From IMG/VR virus record IMGVR_UViG_3300003792_000001: a stretch of 60,674 bases of DNA; one strand, written 5' to 3'. The position numbers and the translations under genes are program-made. The notes under the pieces were generated by a model. The model was not told the DNA's origin and did not search any database. It worked only from the letters and a program-made list of their open reading frames with translations. Position 1 is the first letter of the stretch. Each line of letters opens with the position of its first letter. This DNA comes from a virus. Below, one piece after another: positions 14,973-27,006 of this stretch.

Positions 14973-15416
14973 ATGGCACCTCCAACCACTGCCCGCTTCG
15001 GCAAATTCCGGGTTCTCCTCGGCGACGGCGATAGCCCGGAAGTATTTGCCGCGCCTTGCGGCTTCACCTCGAAGTCGCTTGTCCTCTCCAAGAACCTGAC
15101 CGACGTCAATCTGCCTGATTGCGACGATCCCGACGCCCCGGCTTGGGTGGGCCGCGATGTCGAAAGCCTCACCGCCTCGATCACCGGCGAGGGCGTCATG
15201 GCGGCGGAATCCGCCCCGGACTGGATGGCGGCCTATGAAAGCGTCGACTCGATCAGCGTGAAGGTCGAGATCGAGTTCCCGCTGGTGACCTACGTCTATA
15301 CCGGCAAAATGCACATCGCCACGATGACGCTGGGCGCCGAGCAAGGTGGCCGCGTGACCAACAACGTCGAAATGCAAAGCGATGGCGAACTCGTGCGGAG
15401 CCAAGAAACCACATGA
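14973..15416 (+). CDS. Major tail protein (TP901-1/GTA gp9-like)
   Basis: Size, position and the FGKFRVLLGDG...PCGFTSKSL pattern. Confidence 0.8.
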   Translation: MAPPTTARFGKFRVLLGDGDSPEVFAAPCGFTSKSLVLSKNLTDVNLPDCDDPDAPAWVGRDVESLTASITGEGVMAAESAPDWMAAYESVDSISVKVEIEFPLVTYVYTGKMHIATMTLGAEQGGRVTNNVEMQSDGELVRSQETT

Positions 15417-15829
15417 GCCGCGACGCCTCGATCACCCTCGCTTGGGCAGACGGAGATTACCATTTCCGTCTGGCTTGGGGCGAACTCAAGCTGTTGCAAG
15501 AGGCGACGAATGCCGGGCCGCCCATCGTCCTCAAACGGCTGGAAAACGACCTGTGGCTCATCGAGGATATTTCCTCGGTGATCCGCTGTGGCCTGATCGG
15601 CGGCGGCATGACGCCGGTGCAGGCTTTGAAGCTGACGCGGGCGTATGTCGAAAGCCGCCCGCCCGCCGAGAATGTCCCCTATGCAATCGCCATCCTCCAA
15701 TGCGGCCTGTTCGGGGCGCCCGATGAGGACGAAACAAAAAAAGACGAGGGTCGGATGACGGCGACCGACTCGATGATCTCCCAAACGGAAAATTCCGGTT
15801 TGGAGCCGTCTATGGCACGGGCGCAGTGA
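15413..15829 (+). CDS. Tail assembly chaperone (GTA gp10-like)
   Basis: ITLAWADGDYHFRLAWGELKLLQEA pattern. Lies directly after the major tail gene. Confidence 0.7.
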   Translation: MSRDASITLAWADGDYHFRLAWGELKLLQEATNAGPPIVLKRLENDLWLIEDISSVIRCGLIGGGMTPVQALKLTRAYVESRPPAENVPYAIAILQCGLFGAPDEDETKKDEGRMTATDSMISQTENSGLEPSMARAQ

Positions 15830-15984
15830 TGGGGTTCACGCCCTCCGAAATCGATAAAATGAGCGTTTGGCAATTTATCCAAGCCTGCGACGGCTTTGCC
15901 AAGGCGCACGACCCTAACGCCGACAAGGAACTATCGTCCGCCGAAGCCGACGACCTTTGGGCGTGGATGCAAACCAAACACTGA
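15829..15984 (+). CDS. Small tail assembly chaperone (rcc01693/Phage_TAC_6-like), 51 aa
   Basis: Translated by hand: MGFTPSEIDKMSVWQFIQACDGFAKAHDPNADKELSSAEADDLWAWMQTKH. TGATG overlap. Absent from the track because it is under 60 aa. Confidence 0.6.
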   Translation: MGFTPSEIDKMSVWQFIQACDGFAKAHDPNADKELSSAEADDLWAWMQTKH

Positions 15985-15996
15985 GGATTTCCCCAC

Positions 15997-18900
15997 GTGG
16001 CAACCGACCTTGAGCGCCTCGTCGTGCAGCTTAGCGCCGACGTGAAATCCTATGAGCGCGGGCTACAGCGTGCGCGCGGCGTGACGAACCGCGAAATGGG
16101 CGCAATCGAAAAGCGCGCCAAGAGCATGAACCGCAACATCAGCGATATCGGCAAGGGCTTCGGGCGCGGCTTGGTCGCGCCTCTTGCCGGTGTCGCTGCC
16201 GCCTTGAGCGTGGCCGAGGTGATCAAATACGCCGACGCCTGGAAGCGCGCCGGAAACGCCCTCAAGGTATCCGGCGTCCCGGCGGGCCAACTTGCGGGCA
16301 CGCTTGACCGGCTATTCGACATCGCGCAAGGCGCGGGCGCCGATCTCGGTTCTACCGTCACCCTCTTTTCCCGCCTTTCCCAATCCGCCAACGAGCTGGG
16401 CGCCAATCAGGAACAGCTTTTCCAGTTCACCAAAGGCGTCGGCGACGCCTTGAAGGTAGCGGGGACCGACGCCGCGTCGGCCAGCGGCGCCTTGCTGCAA
16501 TTGAGCCAGGCGCTCGGCGGCAGCATCGTCCGGGCGGAAGAATTCAATTCGATCAACGAGGGCGCCCGGCCCATCCTGCAAGCCGTCGCCGATGGCCTCG
16601 ACGAGGCGGGCGGGTCGGTCGCAAAATTGCGCGAGATCGTGCTTGAGGGCGGCCTGACCTCGAAAGCCTTTTTCGAGGCGTTCCTGAAAGGATCGAAGGG
16701 GCTGGCAAAGCAGGCCGAACAGGCATCGACGACGTTCGGGCAGGCTTTCCAAAAGATCGAAAACGCCTTCACGAAATACATCGGCTCGACCGACGAAAGC
16801 CTCGGCGCATCGGCGCGGCTGATCGCCGGGCTTGAAGCGCTCGCCGATAATTTCGACGCGACCGCCGACGTCGCCATCGCTTTCGCCAGCATCCTTGCGG
16901 CGGGCCTGCTTGGCCGCGCGATTGGCGGGATGATTGCGCGGATCGGGCTGGGGATCGGCGCCCTCAATAATCTCGTCAAGGCATTCCGTGGCGTGCAGGT
17001 CGCGGCGGGTGCCAGCAGCGGCGCACTCGCAAGCCTTGGCGCTGCCGCCGGGCCGCTTGGCGCCATCGCGGGCCTTGGCGCCCTCGCGGTGACAACGGCC
17101 CTGATCGGCTTCCAGCAGGAGGCGGACGAGGCCGCCGCCAAAGCCGAAAAGATCAACGCCGAGCTGGAAAAGATGGGGCTCCTTGCCCCGAAGGCGGCGG
17201 ATGGTGTCGACGAGGCCGCCAAGTCCGTGGAGGAACTTTCCAAGGGTGCCAAGGCGCGCCAACTGAAAGATTTCAACGATGAGTTGGAACGCCTGCGCGG
17301 CGGTGGCACCGGCGGGAGCCTCGGCGACGAATTGGGCTCCATCGCCGAAAAGGCGCGGGCCGGGATGCGCGGCCTTGTCGGAATGTTTTCCACGTCGGAC
17401 ATCGATAGGGCGGCGCGCGAGTCCATCGCCGGTCTCGCCGATGGTTTCCGCGACGGCAATGTGGCGGCAGAGGCGGCGCTTGCCACGCTGCAAGAAATGG
17501 AAGCAACGGAAATCAGCACGCCGGTCCTTGAACTGAATAAGCAGCTACAGGAGACCATTAAGCGCTACCGCGCCGTGCAAACCGCCGCCGCCGGGCTGGG
17601 CGACACCAAAGAACTGGACCGCTACGCCGCCGCCGTGAAAAAGGCGCGCGACGAGGTGGTGGCGCTGTTCGATCACGCCCTCCGCTCCATCGACCGAAAC
17701 ACCATCTCGCCCGCAGCATTGAAGGAGCTTGAAGACCTGCGCGATGGTCTGGCCGAGGGCACGACCGGCGCCGACGAGGCCAAGGCCGCGCTGCAAAGGC
17801 TGGCGCGCGAAAACTATGGGTTCCAGGCCATCGCCGACGCATTCCAGCCGGTGCTCGATGTGTTCGGCCTTGCCATCAAAGCGCTGGATGAATTCAAGAC
17901 GAAGGCGGCAGGATTTACCATGCCGGGCACGAACGGCCCGCCCGGCTTTATGCGCGAGGGCGCGCAGGAGGAAATCCGCAGGCGCGACGTATCCACCTAT
18001 CTGCAAGAGCGCGAAGCACTGGAATTGCGCACGGCCCACGAAAAGGAACTCGCCGAGCTAACTGAAAAGATCATGAAAGACGCCAAGGAGGCGGGCAAGG
18101 CGATCACCGAGGCCGAGGCGGCGGCATCGGCGCGCAAGCGTTTGGAAAATCGCGAGACGGCGGAAGCGCGGCAAGGCTCGGTATCGAGCGCCGCGTCGAT
18201 GATCAAGCAATATGAAGGGTTCCGCTCGACGCCCTATTGGGACAAGAACGCTTATCGGGTCGGCTTTGGCTCGGATACCGTCACGCTGTCGGACAATTCG
18301 GTTCAAAAGGTGACGAAGGGCATCTCGATTTCGGTGGCCGATGCGAACCGCGACCTCAATCGCCGCATTGAGGAATTTCAGAACGGCATCAAGGGCGACA
18401 TCGGCGCCGAACGCTTCGCGGGCTTCAACGAGGATCAGCAAGGCGTCCTGACCAGCATCGCCTACAATTACGGCTCGCTGCCTGATCGCATCATAAAGGC
18501 AATCAAGGAAGGCACGACCGAGGATATTTACAACGCCATTCGCGGCCTTGGCAGCGACAACGGCGGGATCAATCGCAAGCGCCGCAACAAAGAGGCCGAA
18601 GAATTCCTGTCCGGGGCGCCGGAAGGAATCCGCGAGGACATCACCCTTCGCCGCGAGCAAAACCAGCTGATCAAGGATAAGGTCGCCGCCCTCGCCGAGG
18701 AAACGGCGGGCATCGCCGCTGATACATCGATGATGAGCGCCTCCAATGCGGAGCGCGAACGCGAGCGGGTCATTCGCGAAACCCTCAATGAACTGCAAAA
18801 GGAAGGCATCACGATCACCGACGAGGTGCGCGCTGCTGTCGAGGCCGAGGCCGCCGCCCGCTACGGCGCCGTGGCCGCCTATGATGCCGCCGAAAAGGCC

Positions 18901-19533
18901 GCCGACCGGCTCAAGCAAAGCCAAGAGGATTTGGCCGCCGTCCAGCAGGATATTTCCGGTGCATTCCAAGGCGCAATGAAGGGGTTCATCTCCGATCTCG
19001 TCCACGGAAAGACGGCGACCGAAGCGCTCTATAATGCCGTATCCCAGCTTGCCGACCGCTTGCTCGACATCGCCCTTGATCAGATTTTCAAATCGCTGTT
19101 TTCGCCAAGCACCGGCGCGACCGGCGGCGGCGGCTTCTTCGGCGCGCTGTTCGGCGGCCTTTTCGATAAGGGCGGCTATACCGGCGCGGGCGGCAAGTAC
19201 GAGCCCAAGGGCGTCGTCCATGGCGGCGAATATGTATTCTCCAAGGCGGCCACGAACCGCATCGGCGTCGGCAATCTTGATGCGATGCACAGGGCGGCGA
19301 AACGCGGCGGCTTTGCCGAGGGCGGCTATACCCTGCCGCGAATTCGCGGCGCCGGGGCACAGGTACAAGCTCAGGCCGCCCCGCCGAACGTGGACGCCAG
19401 GACGACGGTCATCAATCGCTTTGACGCCGCGTCGTTCCTTTCCGAAGCGATGGCCCAGCCAGCGGGCGCAAAGACGATCCTCAACGTGATCAAATCACAG
19501 CCCGCCGCGTTCCGGGCGGCGATGCAGGGGTAA
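15997..19533 (+). CDS. Tape measure protein with an internal lysozyme (GH24-like) domain
   Basis: 1178 aa, Ala/Gly-rich and helical. The internal segment IKQYEGFRSTPYWDKNAYRVGFGSDT...SIAYNYGS resembles the phage lysozyme catalytic region. Confidence 0.9.
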   Translation: MATDLERLVVQLSADVKSYERGLQRARGVTNREMGAIEKRAKSMNRNISDIGKGFGRGLVAPLAGVAAALSVAEVIKYADAWKRAGNALKVSGVPAGQLAGTLDRLFDIAQGAGADLGSTVTLFSRLSQSANELGANQEQLFQFTKGVGDALKVAGTDAASASGALLQLSQALGGSIVRAEEFNSINEGARPILQAVADGLDEAGGSVAKLREIVLEGGLTSKAFFEAFLKGSKGLAKQAEQASTTFGQAFQKIENAFTKYIGSTDESLGASARLIAGLEALADNFDATADVAIAFASILAAGLLGRAIGGMIARIGLGIGALNNLVKAFRGVQVAAGASSGALASLGAAAGPLGAIAGLGALAVTTALIGFQQEADEAAAKAEKINAELEKMGLLAPKAADGVDEAAKSVEELSKGAKARQLKDFNDELERLRGGGTGGSLGDELGSIAEKARAGMRGLVGMFSTSDIDRAARESIAGLADGFRDGNVAAEAALATLQEMEATEISTPVLELNKQLQETIKRYRAVQTAAAGLGDTKELDRYAAAVKKARDEVVALFDHALRSIDRNTISPAALKELEDLRDGLAEGTTGADEAKAALQRLARENYGFQAIADAFQPVLDVFGLAIKALDEFKTKAAGFTMPGTNGPPGFMREGAQEEIRRRDVSTYLQEREALELRTAHEKELAELTEKIMKDAKEAGKAITEAEAAASARKRLENRETAEARQGSVSSAASMIKQYEGFRSTPYWDKNAYRVGFGSDTVTLSDNSVQKVTKGISISVADANRDLNRRIEEFQNGIKGDIGAERFAGFNEDQQGVLTSIAYNYGSLPDRIIKAIKEGTTEDIYNAIRGLGSDNGGINRKRRNKEAEEFLSGAPEGIREDITLRREQNQLIKDKVAALAEETAGIAADTSMMSASNAERERERVIRETLNELQKEGITITDEVRAAVEAEAAARYGAVAAYDAAEKAADRLKQSQEDLAAVQQDISGAFQGAMKGFISDLVHGKTATEALYNAVSQLADRLLDIALDQIFKSLFSPSTGATGGGGFFGALFGGLFDKGGYTGAGGKYEPKGVVHGGEYVFSKAATNRIGVGNLDAMHRAAKRGGFAEGGYTLPRIRGAGAQVQAQAAPPNVDARTTVINRFDAASFLSEAMAQPAGAKTILNVIKSQPAAFRAAMQG

Positions 19534-19539
19534 GCCGCC

Positions 19540-20733
19540 TTGGCAACCGTCTGGCCCTATCTCCCGAACATCCGCCGCGAGGCCTATGTGATCGCGCGCG
19601 AATATCGAACCGACATCATCGTGTCGCGATCCGGCAAGGAGCAACGCCGCGCCCTGCGCCAGACGCCGCGCAAGCGGGTCGAATATCTGTCCGGCGTCGC
19701 GGGCGATTGCCTGCGCGCCTTTGATCGCTCGATGGTCACGGCGCAGCGCGAACAGCTCGCTATTCCTGATCGCGTGCGCTTTGTCAGGCTCGCCACCGGC
19801 CTTGGCGGTTCCGCCGACTCCGTGGTGATCAGCCCTGTCCCGTCGTGGATCGTCGCCGATGCCGCCTTGCTGCTGGTATCGGGATCGCGCGTCGCGGCGC
19901 GCACCGTCGAAAGCGTGGTCGGCACTACCGTCACGTTTGTCGAAAGCGAGGCCGCATCATGGCCCGCAGGCACCCGCCTTCATCCCTCCCTGCATGGATA
20001 TCTTGAAGCATCGATCACGGCGCCGGTGATCTCGCCGCGCGGCGTCGTGGATATTTCCGTGGCGTTCGAGGTCGATCCCGGCAGCGAGCCGCCGGAAGAT
20101 ATCGGCTCGGCGGCGGTCACATTCGCATCGCGCGAGGTGTTTTTGACCCGCCCGAACCGCTGGCGGCAGATCACCCTGAATAGGGTCCAAGACGGCGCCG
20201 CCGCCACTGATTATGGCTTTGGGCGGGTGCAAAGGTTCTTCCCCATCGAATTCGCCACCCGCATGTGGGAGGCCGACTATACCGGCTGCGATTTCGACCA
20301 CGCCGATGCCATCCGGCAATTGTTCGACCGCATGCAAGGGCGGCGCGGCGAGTTCTATATGCCGACATGGCAAAGGGATTTTGTCCCGCTTGCCGGGCTG
20401 ACATCCGCCGGGACGACACTGATCGTCGAAGGCACGGCGGCGCAGGCCTATAGCGGAGACACCGTGTTCAAGGCCATTGCCGTCCGCAAGAAAGACGGCA
20501 CGTGGCTATTGCGCACCGTCACCAGCATTGGCCCCTCCGGCGGCACAAATAGCGCCCTGACAGTCAATGCGGCATGGGGCGAGACCGTCGCGCTGGCCAA
20601 TATCGACATGGTTTGCTGGCTCCCGGTCTGGCGCTTCTCATCCGACATCCTGACCATGAGCTGGCCGCGCGAGGATGTCGCCGAAATCAAACTCCCTATT
20701 CAGATGATTGAAAACCTCACGGCGGAAACATGA
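19540..20733 (+). CDS. Distal tail protein candidate
   Basis: Lies between the TMP and the BR0599-type protein, the slot of GTA gp12. No motif recognised. TTG start. Confidence 0.55.
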   Translation: MATVWPYLPNIRREAYVIAREYRTDIIVSRSGKEQRRALRQTPRKRVEYLSGVAGDCLRAFDRSMVTAQREQLAIPDRVRFVRLATGLGGSADSVVISPVPSWIVADAALLLVSGSRVAARTVESVVGTTVTFVESEAASWPAGTRLHPSLHGYLEASITAPVISPRGVVDISVAFEVDPGSEPPEDIGSAAVTFASREVFLTRPNRWRQITLNRVQDGAAATDYGFGRVQRFFPIEFATRMWEADYTGCDFDHADAIRQLFDRMQGRRGEFYMPTWQRDFVPLAGLTSAGTTLIVEGTAAQAYSGDTVFKAIAVRKKDGTWLLRTVTSIGPSGGTNSALTVNAAWGETVALANIDMVCWLPVWRFSSDILTMSWPREDVAEIKLPIQMIENLTAET

Positions 20734-21575: not shown

Positions 21576-21803
21576 ATGGCATGGTTTATCCCACTCCTGC
21601 TGGCAATCATCTTCAATGTGATTGCCTATCTGCTGGCGCCCAAGCCGAAAAAGCAAAAGCCGCCAGAGGCCAAAGACCTCGATAATCCGTCCGCTGATGC
21701 CGGGCGCCCAATCCCGGTCATTTTCGGCACTGTGACAATCAAGGGGCTGAACGTCCTTTGGTTCGGCGACAAGTCGAAAGAGACGAAAAAGGTCTCGGCG
21801 TGA
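21576..21803 (+). CDS. N-terminal fragment of the J-like/GTA gp15-like tail hub protein (TM helix plus PIPVIFGTV motif)
   Basis: MAWFIPLLLAIIFNVIAYLLAPKP...GRPIPVIFGTVTIKGLNVLWFGD corresponds to the N-terminus of gp15/J-type proteins. It is in the same reading frame as 21975..25238 but separated from it by three stops. Confidence 0.6.
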   Translation: MAWFIPLLLAIIFNVIAYLLAPKPKKQKPPEAKDLDNPSADAGRPIPVIFGTVTIKGLNVLWFGDKSKETKKVSA

Positions 21804-22003
21804 GCCTCATCACCATTACCGACATCCGCGCTGCGGGCCACTGCGTAAGCGGCACCCGCAAATGGTTTGAGCGGCATGGGATCGATTTTCGCGCCTTCCT
21901 GAAAGACGGCATTTCCGAAGAAGAATTGCTGGCGACCGGCGACGCCTTGGCGGCCCAAGTCATCAAGCATAAGCGTGAAAGGGATCGCGCCCGTGGGCGG
22001 TAA
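21800..22003 (+). CDS. Embedded 67-aa ORF interrupting the tail hub gene
   Basis: The GTG start overlaps the TGA of the upstream fragment (GTGA). The product is VSLITITDIRAAGHCVSGTRKWFERHGIDFRAFLKDGISEEELLATGDALAAQVIKHKRERDRARGR. The tracked ORF extends upstream to 21758. Confidence 0.45.
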   Translation: MSLITITDIRAAGHCVSGTRKWFERHGIDFRAFLKDGISEEELLATGDALAAQVIKHKRERDRARGR

Positions 22004-25000
22004 GAACGACAAGCCGAAACAGGAGGTGACCCTCTATTATATGTCCGAGCATTTCGGCATTTGCCACGGCCCGCTGGACTATATTTCGAAGATCATCATC
22101 AACGAAAAGACCGCGTGGGAGGGCGAGCGCTCGATCCAGAGCAACATCAGCATCAATAAGCCGGAGCTTTTCGGCGGCGTGAAAAAGGAGGGCGGCGCGG
22201 TGGGCGTCGTCCACTATTTGCCCGGCGGCGCGACGCAGACGATCCCCGAAGAAATCGCCGCCAAGCATGGCAGGACGACGGCAACGATGCCCGCCTATCG
22301 CGGTATATCCACCGCCTTTTTCCATGATGGCCAAGGCCAAGAGGGCTTTTACTGGTCGGCGAATTCGCCCTATTTGCCGGGCGTCTGGATCAAAGCGTCG
22401 CGCGCATCGACGCGGCTGGGCGAAGACTACGCCCGCATCTATCGCGACGGCTCGACTCGCGAAAAGCGAACGGTCGCGAACTTCACCGCCGAAAGCGACG
22501 TTAACGCATGGCGGCTGTACGACGTTTACGGGTCAACGCTGGCGCATTATTCCGCCGATCTCGAACAATTGATTATTGAGGATTTGCGCGCCGGGACGGT
22601 CCACGCGGCCATCACTCTTTCTGATCCGCCAATGTGGGTCTACATCTCGCCGTCGCAAAGCGAGGTTCTGGTGCTGGGCCCTACGGGCGTTCTTGATAGC
22701 TACACGCTGACCGGGGCGGCAAAGGCAAGCGTGTCGCTCGGCATTGACCCGACGCAACCGGGCGACAGCCTCGGACAATTGGACGGCCCGCCTACCGAGA
22801 TCGTCGTCGGCGGCACGACCTATATGTTTTTCATGGTCTACACCGCCGTCGTCTGCTGCAAGAACAGCGGCGGCGGATGGTCGTTCGAATGGATCGACAG
22901 CGGCGGCCCTCAATATGGCGGCGTTGTGGCCGCATCCCCTACGCATCTCGTCGTCCGAAATCCGTTCGGCCATTGCACCTACGTCGCCTGGACGCCGGGC
23001 ATCGCGCCGGTCGGTGGCCTTGGCGCCTACTACACGATTGATTTTGAGACATTGCTTGGATGGAACGTCGGTTTCACGCACGCGATCAATAGCGTGACCT
23101 ATGTCCCGGCGACCGATAGATGGTTTTTCACCGTCGCCACCGGCCCGCTTGCGACGCTCAATTCGGATTGTACCGCCGTCGTGGCCAGCGGCACCACGGA
23201 CGCGGCATTTGGCACGTCCGAGCGACAGCCGGTCAAATCGCGGCGCATCCTTATGGAAGGGGATAGCGTCGCCGCGTTCATCAATGACCGCGCGGTCTAT
23301 TTGTTCGATATCGCGACCTGTGAGCAAATCCAGAAAATCCCTCTGTCGGAGTGGGACTTGGGCGACACGATAGTTGAGGACGACGCCGGATATTCCCCGG
23401 AGGAAAGGGCCTTCTTCCTCGTCACCGGCAATTTCAATGACGGCTACGTCGTCATGCTGCCGAATGGCGATTTTGACAGCAATCCGGCACATATCATTTA
23501 CGACGCCCTGACCAATACCGACTGGGGCATGGCCTCGCCATCCACCGCCATCGATGTCGCCAGTTTCGAGGCCGCCGCCGCCGTCCTTTATGACGAGGCT
23601 TTCGGCCTGTCATTCATTTGGACGAAGCAATCGACCATCGAGAGCTTTATTTCCGAAGTGCTCGATCACATCGAGGCGGTGCTGTTCGTCAATCCGATGA
23701 ATGGCCTGCTGACCCTCAAGTTGATCCGCGATGATTATGAGGTCGATGACTTGCCGGTCTTTACCCCGGACAATTCCGTCGTCACCAAATTCGGGCGCAA
23801 GCTGTGGGGCGAGACGATCAACGAAATTGTGGTGACGTGGACCAATCCAAAGAACGAGGAAGAACAGACCGTCATCGCGCAGGACAACGCCAATATCGAA
23901 GCGCAAGGCGGCATTGTATCGGATGGCCGGAATTACTACGGCGTGCGGGTCCGGGGCTTGGCCATGAAGCTCGCCCAGCGCGATCTGCGCGCTGCGTCCA
24001 CGCCGCTTGCATCCGGGGATATGGAGGTCAATCGCGACGCCTGGAATTTGCTGCCCGGCGACGTGATCGTGCTGAATTCGCCGGAGGATGGCATCGACAG
24101 TATCGTCATGCGCGTGGGCCCGGTCGATTATGGCAAGCCCGGTGATCCCACGGTCAAGGTTCAACTGGTCGAGGATATCTTTTCGCTGCCGCTGGCCGAC
24201 TACGATATTCCGCCGGATACCGAGTGGCAGCCGGTATCCGAGGAGCCGTCGCCCGCCGACGATACGCTGGCTTTCACCTTGCCCTATTATTTGGTGGCCA
24301 ACGAGGTCGATCCGACCGTCCTTGCGCTGGGCGTCGAATATCCCGAAGTCTTTGCCGGGGTGCTCGCCGCCGAAAGCGGGCAGGATACGGCGGAATTCGA
24401 ACTTTACGATTCGGCGGCTGATGATCTCGGCACAAAGACCATTGTCAGCCGCGCCGAACTTGCCGCCGGGATCGATGCCGAGGTGGAAACCGATCTGCCG
24501 ACATTCCCCGACCGGACGCAGGGCAACGCGCCGACGGTTGGCGGCTTTATCCTGATCGAGGGCACCGACGAGACCGACGTCGAGCTTTGCGAAATCACCG
24601 CCTCGGATGATACCGGCTATACGGTCAAGCGCGGCGCGCTCGATACCATCCCGCGCGCTTGGCCATCGGGGACGCCGGTGTGGTTCATCGACGGCAATCT
24701 CGAAAACACCGACGATACGGTCAGATCGGAAGCCGAGGTTGTCGGCTATAAGGTGCTGACGCGCACGTCGCTCGGCTTGCTGGAATTTGCCGCCGCGCCG
24801 ACGATCTCCCTGACGCTGACGGCCCGTCCATATTTGCCGCTGCGGCCCGCCGACGTGAAAGTCAACGGCGACGATGGCTTTGCCGGGATTGTCGACTGCG
24901 ACGGGGTGGACCCGATCCCGGTCACATGGGCCAACCGCAACCGGCTCACCGAGGACTCGGTCATTCTCGCCTGGGACGCGGCAGACGTGACGCCGGAGGA

Positions 25001-25238
25001 TGGTCAGACCACCCGGATCGAAGTGCTCGATTTGGCCGAAACCGTCCTGACCACCCACGATGATCTGACAGGCACCAGCTTTGATGTGCCCGCCGCGTCG
25101 TTCCTTGGCGAGACGGCTGGATACATTCGGGTCAGCTCAAAGCGCGACGGGCTGATTTCCCTGCAAGCGCATCAAATTGAGGTCGTGCTTTCGACCGGCT
25201 ACGGCTACGGCTACGGCCTGAATTATGGAGGGGCATAA
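21975..25238 (+). CDS. Tail hub/host specificity protein (lambda J / GTA gp15-like), main part
   Basis: GGKNDKPKQEVTLYYMSEHFGICHGP and NPAHIIYDALTNTDWGMASPSTAIDVASFE parallel conserved J/gp15 segments. 1087 aa. Confidence 0.85.
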   Translation: MKGIAPVGGKNDKPKQEVTLYYMSEHFGICHGPLDYISKIIINEKTAWEGERSIQSNISINKPELFGGVKKEGGAVGVVHYLPGGATQTIPEEIAAKHGRTTATMPAYRGISTAFFHDGQGQEGFYWSANSPYLPGVWIKASRASTRLGEDYARIYRDGSTREKRTVANFTAESDVNAWRLYDVYGSTLAHYSADLEQLIIEDLRAGTVHAAITLSDPPMWVYISPSQSEVLVLGPTGVLDSYTLTGAAKASVSLGIDPTQPGDSLGQLDGPPTEIVVGGTTYMFFMVYTAVVCCKNSGGGWSFEWIDSGGPQYGGVVAASPTHLVVRNPFGHCTYVAWTPGIAPVGGLGAYYTIDFETLLGWNVGFTHAINSVTYVPATDRWFFTVATGPLATLNSDCTAVVASGTTDAAFGTSERQPVKSRRILMEGDSVAAFINDRAVYLFDIATCEQIQKIPLSEWDLGDTIVEDDAGYSPEERAFFLVTGNFNDGYVVMLPNGDFDSNPAHIIYDALTNTDWGMASPSTAIDVASFEAAAAVLYDEAFGLSFIWTKQSTIESFISEVLDHIEAVLFVNPMNGLLTLKLIRDDYEVDDLPVFTPDNSVVTKFGRKLWGETINEIVVTWTNPKNEEEQTVIAQDNANIEAQGGIVSDGRNYYGVRVRGLAMKLAQRDLRAASTPLASGDMEVNRDAWNLLPGDVIVLNSPEDGIDSIVMRVGPVDYGKPGDPTVKVQLVEDIFSLPLADYDIPPDTEWQPVSEEPSPADDTLAFTLPYYLVANEVDPTVLALGVEYPEVFAGVLAAESGQDTAEFELYDSAADDLGTKTIVSRAELAAGIDAEVETDLPTFPDRTQGNAPTVGGFILIEGTDETDVELCEITASDDTGYTVKRGALDTIPRAWPSGTPVWFIDGNLENTDDTVRSEAEVVGYKVLTRTSLGLLEFAAAPTISLTLTARPYLPLRPADVKVNGDDGFAGIVDCDGVDPIPVTWANRNRLTEDSVILAWDAADVTPEDGQTTRIEVLDLAETVLTTHDDLTGTSFDVPAASFLGETAGYIRVSSKRDGLISLQAHQIEVVLSTGYGYGYGLNYGGA

Positions 25239-25987
25239 TGCCTTCAAGGACACTTCCCGGCCTTGGCCTTACCGGCTTTTGGGATTTGGGGTTCGATGGT
25301 TGGAAAGACCCGATGGACGTCAATTTGCGGCTCCTGTCCGCGCTCGTCCAGCCGCGCGCGATCAGCCGCACCACGGCTTTGCCGGGTTCGCCTACCGATG
25401 GCGATATTTATATTGTCCCGGATGGCGCGGGCAGCAATCCCAACGAGATCGCGATCCGCGACAATGGCGCTTGGGTCTATGTCGTCCCCGCCGAGGGCTT
25501 TACCGCCTATGTCGAGGACGATGCCGAAAACGTCCAGTTCGACGGCACGGATTGGGTGGGGCTTGCCGCCGGGATCGCCGATGCGCCCAGCGACGGCACG
25601 ATCTACGGTCGGAAAGACGGCGCGTGGGAAGCGGTCCCCGATGGCGTGACAAAGATAGAACTTTCGTTCTTTGCGGGCGGCACGTTCGACGCGACGGAAT
25701 TGCTGTTCCGGCATGTGGCCACGCAAGCGTTCACCTTCCCGGCGGGGCTCACGGACTCGCGCGGATCGTCGGCGCTGGCGGCGACCGGCAGCGCCGCCCT
25801 ATCGATCAAAAAGAATGGTTCCGAGGTCGGCACGGCCACATGGTCGGCGGCGGGCACCACGGCGACGATGGCGATGGCCTCGCCGACGAGCTTTGCCGCT
25901 GGCGACGTTCTGTCCGTCACCGGCCCCGCCACGCCGGACGCCACGCTCGGCGACGTCTCTGTTTCACTGATTGGGGAACTGGCATGA
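25238..25987 (+). CDS. DUF2793-type tail fibre protein
   Basis: ALPGSPTDGDIYIVPDGA...IAIRDNGAWVYVVPAEGFTAYVEDD...FDGTDW is the DUF2793 pattern seen in alphaproteobacterial GTA/phage fibres. Confidence 0.7.
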   Translation: MPSRTLPGLGLTGFWDLGFDGWKDPMDVNLRLLSALVQPRAISRTTALPGSPTDGDIYIVPDGAGSNPNEIAIRDNGAWVYVVPAEGFTAYVEDDAENVQFDGTDWVGLAAGIADAPSDGTIYGRKDGAWEAVPDGVTKIELSFFAGGTFDATELLFRHVATQAFTFPAGLTDSRGSSALAATGSAALSIKKNGSEVGTATWSAAGTTATMAMASPTSFAAGDVLSVTGPATPDATLGDVSVSLIGELA

Positions 25988-27006
25988 GCATCCTTTTCGC
26001 GACATCATCCATCGCCGATTTCGACACAATCGTTGGCTGCGTCGCACAGACGTCGTCGACCTATTTCGATAACACGTATGCCACGGAAGCCATTGAGGTC
26101 AACGAGTCGGGCTCATCCAACCTCGCGGTAAAGACGCTGCCGTCGGCGGATACTGATCTCTGGCTAGCGGCCCGCTATTTTTGGTCCTCAGCCCTTGCCT
26201 CATTGAATGGTTCGTGGATCGCCTTTTACGATACCGCCTTCGGCGCGACAGCAATCGCGCGGATTCGCTCCACATTCTCCAGCCCGAACTACATTCACAA
26301 CTTGGAAATCTACAACGGCGCGACCTATGACACCGTGCTGACGTTTAACAATTTAATCGTCGCTGAAAATACCCGACGCCACCTCGCGGTGCATTTGAAG
26401 CTCCACGACACCACCGGCAAATTCGAGGTCTATTTCGACAAGGCGCTGATAGCGTCCTTTACCGGCGATACGATCCGGGCGGGATATACGCAGGTCAACA
26501 AATTCCATCTCGGCAATCCGGCTGGATCAGTCGGCGGTAGCGAGATGGAATGGAGCGAGGTCATCGTTGCGGGCGGTGGCGAGGTTCCCATCGATTATCG
26601 CCTCAAGACCCACACGCCGAACGCCAACGGTGCCAACACCGCATGGACCGGCGACTATACGGCAATCGACGAGACCGGCATCAATGACGCCGACCTGATC
26701 ACCACCGCCGTCGCCAACGACAAGGAAACATACGGCTGCACCGACCTTGTATCCGGCACAACGGATCGCGCGTGCCGGGCTGTGGTGGTCGCCAGCAGGT
26801 GCAAGCTCGGAGCGACCGGGCCGCAAAATCTCAAAAACGCGGTACGGGTCGGCGGCACCGACTACCTGTCCAGCAACGTGGCCGGGCTGACCTCCGCGCA
26901 ATTCGTGCCGACGCAGACGATATGGGAAACGAGCCCCGCAACGAGCGCCAAATGGACAGCAGCGGAAATCAACGCCATGGAAATCGGCGTTCAAGCCATC
27001 GCCTAA
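25984..27006 (+). CDS. Putative receptor-binding/fibre-associated protein, paralog 1
   Basis: ATGA-coupled start at 25984. Shares blocks with 27020..28066 (H..LH.KLH..TG..E.Y.D..L.A.F.G.T; ...GTDY.SS.V...W.T.PAT...W). The 25225-25983 part of the tracked ORF is rejected. Confidence 0.65.
   Translation: MSILFATSSIADFDTIVGCVAQTSSTYFDNTYATEAIEVNESGSSNLAVKTLPSADTDLWLAARYFWSSALASLNGSWIAFYDTAFGATAIARIRSTFSSPNYIHNLEIYNGATYDTVLTFNNLIVAENTRRHLAVHLKLHDTTGKFEVYFDKALIASFTGDTIRAGYTQVNKFHLGNPAGSVGGSEMEWSEVIVAGGGEVPIDYRLKTHTPNANGANTAWTGDYTAIDETGINDADLITTAVANDKETYGCTDLVSGTTDRACRAVVVASRCKLGATGPQNLKNAVRVGGTDYLSSNVAGLTSAQFVPTQTIWETSPATSAKWTAAEINAMEIGVQAIA

Follow-up and report, generated by a model that had tools for sequence, protein, structure and literature searches.

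The window analysed here, the 60,674-nucleotide (nt) viral sequence of IMG/VR record IMGVR_UViG_3300003792_000001, carries in its tail gene module three consecutive open reading frames (ORFs): the small ORF1 and ORF2, followed by the large tail-tip hub gene ORF3 (Table 1). A sequence-only reading of the locus had treated ORF1 and ORF3 as two pieces of one hub gene, split by the embedded ORF2 beside a G_AAA_AAG heptamer at which ribosomes might slip into the -1 frame. Its coordinates, reading frames, GTG/TGA overlap, three in-frame stops and heptamer position all hold in the sequence; ORF3 lies in the frame of ORF1, and the three stops fall between 21801 and 21975. Nevertheless, the region is very probably a tail-tip cassette of three separate genes, conserved and translationally coupled, and homologous to gp28-gp29-gp30 of phage Chi and to gp74-gp75-gp76 of phage YuA. 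This reading is carried by the homology, by a conserved gene order with conserved junctions, by the lack of a conserved slippery site, and by the structure of the Chi tail tip (PDB 8VJH), in which the ORF1 homologue is a built chain.

Table 1. Features of the tail-tip locus, with positions in the window (aa, amino acids)
Feature	Position	Strand	Basis or remark
ORF1, small membrane-helix tail-tip protein, 75 aa	ATG 21576 to TGA 21803	+	PHROG 1180, PDB 8VJH chain U, Chi gp28
Hydrophobic N-terminal helix of ORF1, residues 3–21, WFIPLLLAIIFNVIAYLLA	21582–21638	+	Translation; kept in ORF1 family alignment
Conserved ORF1 motif GRPIPVIFGTVTIKGLNVLWFGD	21702–21770	+	G43, F50 and G51 invariant in ORF1 family alignment
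G_AAA_AAG, proposed slippery site	21785–21791	+	Most likely plain Lys-Lys codons
GTGA, ORF2 start overlapping ORF1 stop	21800–21803	+	NTGA usual in relatives
ORF2, small five-helix protein, 67 aa	GTG 21800 to TAA 22003	+	-1 frame relative to ORF1; PHROG 1196, Chi gp29
GTGGGCGGTAA, probable hub start overlapping ORF2 end	21993–22003	+	Junction type ATG/GTG-GG(N)-(N)-TAA
ORF3, J-like tail-tip hub / central fibre protein	21993–25238	+	1,081 aa from GTG 21993; longest ORF, from GTG 21975, 1,087 aa
gpL-like tail-tip hub protein 1 gene, 277 aa	20730–21563	+	Pfam Phage_BR0599 (E = 4.6e-13) and Phage_phiJL001_Gp84_N (E = 4.5e-10); PHROG 778 (E = 1.9e-77)

ORF1 matches PHROG 1180 end to end (residues 2–73 against profile positions 2–73 of 78, E = 1.7e-24) and chain U of 8VJH, the 76-aa "Tail assembly protein 1" of the Chi tail tip (E = 1.9e-7), with a pairwise identity of 38% to Chi gp28. 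As in the Chi gp28-like family, an N-terminal hydrophobic helix is followed by a G-R-P-I-P-V-x-F-G motif, and two prolines (P22 and P38) are invariant in the family alignment along with the three residues listed in Table 1. With its single hydrophobic helix and conserved strand motif, ORF1 is predicted by homology to Chi gp28 to be a virion protein; virion incorporation of its homologues is indicated by the Chi tail tip (8VJH), by the particle annotation of YuA gp74 and by a mass spectrometry table for phages PIN1 and PIN2. This homology, together with a resemblance to the C-terminal part of lambda gpI, makes a trimer in the lumen of the tail tip its most likely form. According to the phage T1 structure paper, the C-terminal coiled coil of the tape measure is supported by a trimeric protein in the lumen, a feature also present in lambda and Chi (PMC11945409). 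ORF1 would act as a lumenal plug in this phage as well. The resemblance to lambda came from aligning ORF1 residues 10–55 with gpI residues 145–198 (blastp E = 2.8e-4 over 55 residues; hhalign E = 0.003): the ORF1 helix aligns with the hydrophobic stretch that precedes LAPK in gpI and the ORF1 motif matches gpI GNVLPVLYGEMRVGSRVV; in gpI the aligned stretch (residues ~142–201) runs from a hydrophobic helix through LAPK and a linker to G..LPVLYGEMRVG. ORF1 lacks the N-terminal ~130-residue part of gpI. Lambda gpI lies directly upstream of J, whereas here ORF2 separates ORF1 from the J-like gene; unlike in lambda, a gpK-like gene is missing from this phage and ORF2 is present instead.

ORF3 is a J-like hub by several matches, including Pfam PF13550 Phage-tail_3 (E = 1.5e-12, 48.2 bits against a gathering cut-off of 23), PHROG 1101 (E = 2e-221), chain A of 8VJH (the 1,296-aa Chi minor tail protein, E = 3e-77) and chain o of 8RK3 (tip attachment protein J of JBD30, E = 3.3e-75). 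Its start is most likely GTG 21993, since this codon yields the N-terminus MGGKNDKPK, a Shine-Dalgarno-like AAGGGA (21979–21984) lies 8 nt upstream of it, and lambda J (MGKGSSK) and Chi gp30 (MGSKSKK) start in the same way. ORF3 would accordingly possess its own native N-terminus, MGGK. The 29-nt overlap between ORF2 and the hub given by the sequence-only reading applies to GTG 21975; from the likely start the overlap is 11 nt. The view of ORF1 as the canonical N-terminus of J-type proteins is apt for a fused subtype of hubs (Xanthomonas phage FoX4 gp33 and IMG/VR locus L128), but not for lambda J or Chi gp30, which begin like ORF3.

ORF2 matches PHROG 1196 (E = 7.3e-26) and Chi gp29 (30% identity, E = 2e-9). 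Six residues (D8, C15, G18, D29, G37 and D48) are invariant across an alignment of distant homologues, which argues that ORF2 is a real gene under selection. The family comprises ~1,484 clusters; among the best 150 of the 1,484, nearly all proteins are 60–80 aa, mostly ~65–70 aa, and the longer ones (~130–170 aa) are tandem duplications of the ORF2 domain, which account for the 128 positions of the PHROG 1196 profile. Two tandem ORF2 domains were seen in P0120, P0121, P0123, P0174, P0194, P0204 and P0245, all from other phages. An AlphaFold2 model built from 14 sequences predicts a five-helix bundle (predicted local distance difference test, pLDDT, 90.2). Searches of the PDB by sequence and by fold returned no match to ORF2, and the viral matches to the model were solely uncharacterised homologues, including a protein of Pseudomonas phage B3. 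An ArsC or glutaredoxin-like fold, suggested by one Joint Genome Institute (JGI) product name and a weak PDB match (2kok, E = 0.73), was rejected in view of the all-helical model and the absence of a PDB fold match.

The same three genes occur in the same order in known phages. ORF1 lies between the gpL-like gene and the J-like hub gene (gpL-like, ORF1, ORF2, ORF3), as in Chi, where gp28, gp29 and gp30 (tail assembly protein 1, gp29 and minor tail protein BH2P) likewise follow the tape measure, distal tail and gpL-like genes; the 277-aa gpL-like gene of the window is the positional counterpart of Chi gp27 (BH1P). All three genes are homologous by sequence, abut or overlap in both cassettes, and have similar sizes in the two small members (76, 79 and 1,296 aa in Chi; 75, 67 and ~1,081 aa here). 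The differences lie in the identity of the small proteins (30–38%) and in ORF3, which lacks the long C-terminal extension of Chi gp30 and carries ~380 extra residues (~118–500) between the regions that align to it. In YuA the three-gene order is again that of the window, with an 82-nt gap between gp75 and the annotated start of gp76 in place of the overlap found here, and with only ORF1 residues 33–65 alignable to gp74 (61% identity). Order and sizes are annotated likewise in VW-6B, PaMx28, AchV4 and RcThunderbird, and a tblastn search of GenBank phage records matched ORF2 in 397 and ORF1 in 267, with hosts that include Pseudomonas, Rhodobacter, Xanthomonas, Klebsiella, Vibrio, Ruegeria and Bordetella.

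Using three sets of loci (43 from IMG/VR found via ORF2, 80 from IMG/VR found via ORF1, and 80 from bacterial genomes), it was possible to follow the cassette across phages and prophages. Of 167 non-redundant split loci, 162 had a detectable ORF2 directly 3' of their free-standing ORF1 (IMG/VR and phage loci, 87/90; bacterial-genome loci, 75/77), and the loci with ORF2 span phages and prophages of Alpha-, Beta- and Gammaproteobacteria. Every locus with at least 44% identity to ORF2 carried it in this slot. The outcome that the sequence-only reading had named as speaking against it, related phages having separate and conserved genes with the same boundaries, essentially holds among close relatives: all 105 ORF1 homologues with at least 51% identity were 73–118 aa in size. 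At least two of the five loci without a detectable ORF2 (L096 and L127, which were inspected) carry a divergent ORF of 88–94 aa in the slot. These ORFs (L096:391–657 and L127:3623–3907) have a CGFCGRG motif and the same GRR-stop/MGG-start overlap, and may be very divergent relatives of ORF2. The Halomonas prophages L139 and L140 likewise lacked a detectable ORF2.

The junctions between the genes are conserved together with their order. In relatives an ATGA, GTGA or TTGA overlap almost always joins the ORF1 stop to the ORF2 start, and because an NTGA overlap forces the -1 frame, ORF2 was in that frame at 32 of 35 non-redundant junctions and at 73 of 77 genome loci. At the second junction, the hub ATG or GTG was located 7–10 nt before the end of the ORF2 stop (ATGGGTAA and variants) and encoded MG(G)K in 31 of 36 cases; overlaps of the ATGGGTAA type give a +1 step (31/36 junctions). 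A -1 step followed by a +1 step returns ORF3 to the frame of ORF1, as seen in 27 of 35 loci, while other spacings lead to other frames (L008, L019-21, L032, VW-6B and AchV4), including lineages with ORF2 itself in the 0 or +1 frame (L008, L019-21, L032 and VW-6B). That ORF1 and ORF3 share a frame therefore follows from two start/stop overlaps and is no mark of a single interrupted gene. Upstream of ORF2, AAGG (21789–21792) forms a Shine-Dalgarno-like element 7 nt before GTG 21800, and relatives keep AAGGT at the same distance from the ORF2 start; the A-rich stretch ending in AAGG would fit a ribosome-binding site for ORF2. The three genes thus appear to be translationally coupled, with the GTGA and GTGGGCGGTAA overlaps potentially allowing termination-reinitiation and so generating the -1 then +1 pattern.

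The sequence-only reading had offered the embedded ORF as either a tail accessory factor or a selfish passenger, and the former is the better description of ORF2. It is probably a stoichiometric, non-structural tail-tip assembly factor, as it is coupled to the genes of 3-copy virion proteins, does not turn up in three virion data sets and is missing from the loci with ORF1 fused to the hub. ORF2 would be made in step with its neighbours and not built into the virion, and could serve, for example, as a chaperone-like holder of the hydrophobic ORF1 protein or of the hub ahead of tip assembly. The alternative of a minor tail-tip virion component, disordered or in low copy number, is unlikely. It would be in keeping with the coupling of ORF2 between two proteins present in 3 copies per virion, from which similar amounts are expected, and small proteins often escape detection by mass spectrometry and in cryo-electron microscopy (cryo-EM) maps. 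Yet the ORF2 homologue is not among the chains modelled in the Chi tail tip (8VJH), and the YuA annotation lists both of its neighbours (gp74 and gp76) as phage particle proteins but gp75 as a "hypothetical protein". The virion mass spectrometry table of the Klebsiella phages PIN1 and PIN2 includes genes _0030 and _0032 and lacks _0031 (PMC12264135), taken as the ORF2 homologue by synteny alone. A more specific version of the assembly-factor role, put forward tentatively and with more doubt than confidence, is that ORF2 is a dedicated holdase for the free-standing membrane-helix plug (ORF1 or Chi gp28), needed only when the plug is separate and lost upon fusion of plug and hub. If true, the evolution of phage tail tips would offer here a modest example of a gene fusion taking the place of a chaperone.

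In FoX4 gp33 (823 aa) and L128 (821 aa), the ORF1 sequence forms the N-terminus and is followed by a Lys-rich linker and then the ORF3 sequence in one polypeptide, where the phage of the window has two polypeptides with ORF2 between them. The ORF1 motif region matches the N-terminal region of FoX4 gp33 (43% identity, E = 1e-11), and PHROG 1101 spans both pieces, with ORF1 at profile positions 4–68 and ORF3 from position 89. Because these hubs run on from ORF1 into ORF3, ORF2 sits exactly at the point of fusion or fission; both of the fused hubs found lack it. ORF1 can be read as a plug module in three states: free (Chi and the window), behind an extra N-terminal domain (lambda gpI), and at the front of the hub (FoX4 and, structurally, Avs-1). 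The single continuous hub gene of the sequence-only reading therefore has real counterparts, with ORF2 at their junction, but the split form is overwhelmingly the commoner one. Fusion may be the derived state, which the MGK start that ORF3 has in common with unfused J proteins favours; in a few lineages the ORF1 module is joined to the hub and ORF2 is absent.

The reverse history, in which ORF2 arrived on a small selfish or mobile element that interrupted a previously continuous hub gene, is improbable. It would draw on the existence of fused hubs without ORF2, on the position of ORF2 exactly at the Lys-rich linker where those hubs are continuous, and on imperfect 13-nt direct repeats that flank ORF2 (CAAGTCGAAAGAG at 21770 and CAAGCCGAAACAG at 22010). 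However, ORF2 is not patchy but fixed in its slot across very distant hosts, and it has diverged about as much as its neighbours (30% identity to Chi gp29 versus 38% for gp28), so any insertion would be ancient and ORF2 is now a stable member of the cassette. No nuclease, transposase, intron or intein signature was found in ORF2 by Pfam, PHROG, fold or Rfam searches; given this and the 162 of 167 occupancy, a recent mobile insertion is not supported. A further copy of the repeat lies at 21641 within ORF1, and each of the three consists of Lys-X-Lys codons. An ancestrally separate hub with later fusion also accounts at least as well for the MGGK start of ORF3, which resembles that of unfused J proteins, lambda J included. 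The three imperfect copies of CAAGCCGAAAAAG (21641–21653, 21770–21782 and 22010–22022) all lie in Lys-rich linkers and are probably chance low complexity rather than a target-site duplication.

Programmed -1 frameshifting at G_AAA_AAG, which would fuse ORF1 to ORF2 and give two alternative products like the lambda G/GT chaperones, is very improbable. ORF2 does lie in the -1 frame, which is open from 21698, and RefSeq and PHROG give each of the two small genes the label 'tail assembly chaperone'. AAA_AAG is moreover able to slip in bacteria, as in dnaX and insertion sequence (IS) elements. The heptamer itself, which had been likened to the dnaX site, breaks the X_XXY_YYZ pattern at its first position, and re-pairing in the P site would therefore need a mismatch. 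It is also no more frequent than chance allows, with an identical in-frame copy at 21647–21653 in ORF1 from which no product is possible and with AAAAAG not enriched in the window (35 observed, 25.7 +/- 5.5 expected). None of the three closest relatives keeps it (ACC AAG AAG in L004, with 95% ORF1 identity; ACG AAG AAG in L005 and L006, 87%), and a search for strict and loose slippery heptamers in the last 150 nt of ORF1 from 35 non-redundant relatives found none conserved in any lineage. The predicted RNA fold of 21770–21870 is unexceptional (z = -1.4; 17 of 200 shuffled sequences fold as well) and places the heptamer in the loop of a 5-bp hairpin, with just a 3-bp stem after it and no downstream stimulator; an Rfam scan gave no match. 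In nearly every locus ORF2 has its own start codon (ATG, GTG or TTG in the NTGA overlap) and Shine-Dalgarno-like element, and no ORF1-ORF2 fusion protein occurs among the best 150 of the 1,484 ORF2-family representatives. The related proposal that recoding yields alternative hub N-termini is not supported either, given the unconserved heptamer, the unexceptional fold and the lack of a fusion protein among those representatives. What ORF1 and ORF2 share with lambda G/GT is that both are small neighbouring tail genes, the second of which lies in the -1 frame; unlike that pair, ORF1 and ORF2 lie downstream and not upstream of the tape measure gene, have no conserved slippery heptamer, include a second gene with its own start, and have a virion protein as the first product. 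Moreover, this phage appears to have its canonical G/GT-type site at another place, A_AAA_AAA (15736–15742). An assembly error as the source of the split is contradicted by an identical ORF1 protein recorded from 14 contigs and by independent relatives at 74–95% identity with the same three ORFs.

Several points weigh against the reading of the locus as a coupled cassette with a lumenal plug and an assembly factor. The locus searches were seeded with ORF1-like patterns, which biases the sample toward close, split relatives, and the fused sample consists of two loci. The sequence link between ORF1 and lambda gpI is weak (hhalign probability 10.7%), and Pfam Lambda_tail_I did not match ORF1 or 21 members of its family at E-values up to 10. 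The position of Chi gp28 in the lumen is taken from papers that cite the Chi structure. The role of ORF2 draws on its absence from three virion data sets, and a 7-kDa protein is easily missed by mass spectrometry or cryo-EM. Lastly, low-level, non-conserved slippage at AAA_AAG may occur in this one phage.

As a discovery the locus offers little, since hundreds of phage genomes already carry annotations of this arrangement and one solved tail-tip structure includes the ORF1 homologue as a built chain. The locus is of use as a caution: a small -1-frame ORF with an NTGA overlap beside Lys-Lys codons mimics recoding, yet reflects translational coupling of the ordinary kind. Readers may be misled in the same way by RefSeq, where both small genes bear the label 'tail assembly chaperone'. 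This label is found on Chi gp28/gp29, PaMx28 gp31/gp32 and AchV4 gp21/gp22, although in Chi and YuA the first gene of the pair encodes a virion protein; the true chaperone frameshift pair of Chi (genes 23 and 24) appears in its RefSeq record as 'tail length tape measure protein'. The locus also serves as a pointer to the ORF2 family, which is widespread and tightly linked to the tail-tip plug gene.

Upstream of the cassette, the tape measure gene (15997–19533) is followed by a distal-tail-like gene (19540–20733) and the gpL-like gene with its BR0599 domain; judged from their sequences, the genes upstream of ORF1 complete a lambda-like or gene transfer agent (GTA)-like tail-tip module. Between the major tail protein and tape measure genes, a 138-aa ORF (15413–15984 region) carries the strict in-frame A_AAA_AAA heptamer (ACA AAA AAA GAC), and the -1 frame is open from there through a 52-aa ORF at 15826–15984 (MMGFTPSEIDKMSVWQF...). 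In position, just upstream of the tape measure gene, and in form, this is probably the canonical frameshift site of a G/GT-type tail assembly chaperone. A nucleotide search against known phages gave at best 64–68% identity over 7–9% of the region, and the phage is one without a close cultured relative. Its nearest prophage relative is in Sinorhizobium shofinae (80% identity), and on this basis the host is probably a rhizobial alphaproteobacterium.

Two further observations were made in and beyond the hub gene. The ~380 residues of ORF3 at ~118–500 (numbered from GTG 21975; window ~22326–23480) have no counterpart in the alignments to Chi gp30 and JBD30, which jump from query residue 117 to ~493–502, and may be a lineage-specific inserted domain, possibly for receptor binding. 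Directly downstream, a 249-aa DUF2793 tail-fibre-like gene (25238–25987) begins right at the hub stop codon and is overlapped in another frame by a 593-aa ORF (25225–27006), which is probably spurious in its Arg/Pro-rich, alternative-frame-like N-terminal part.

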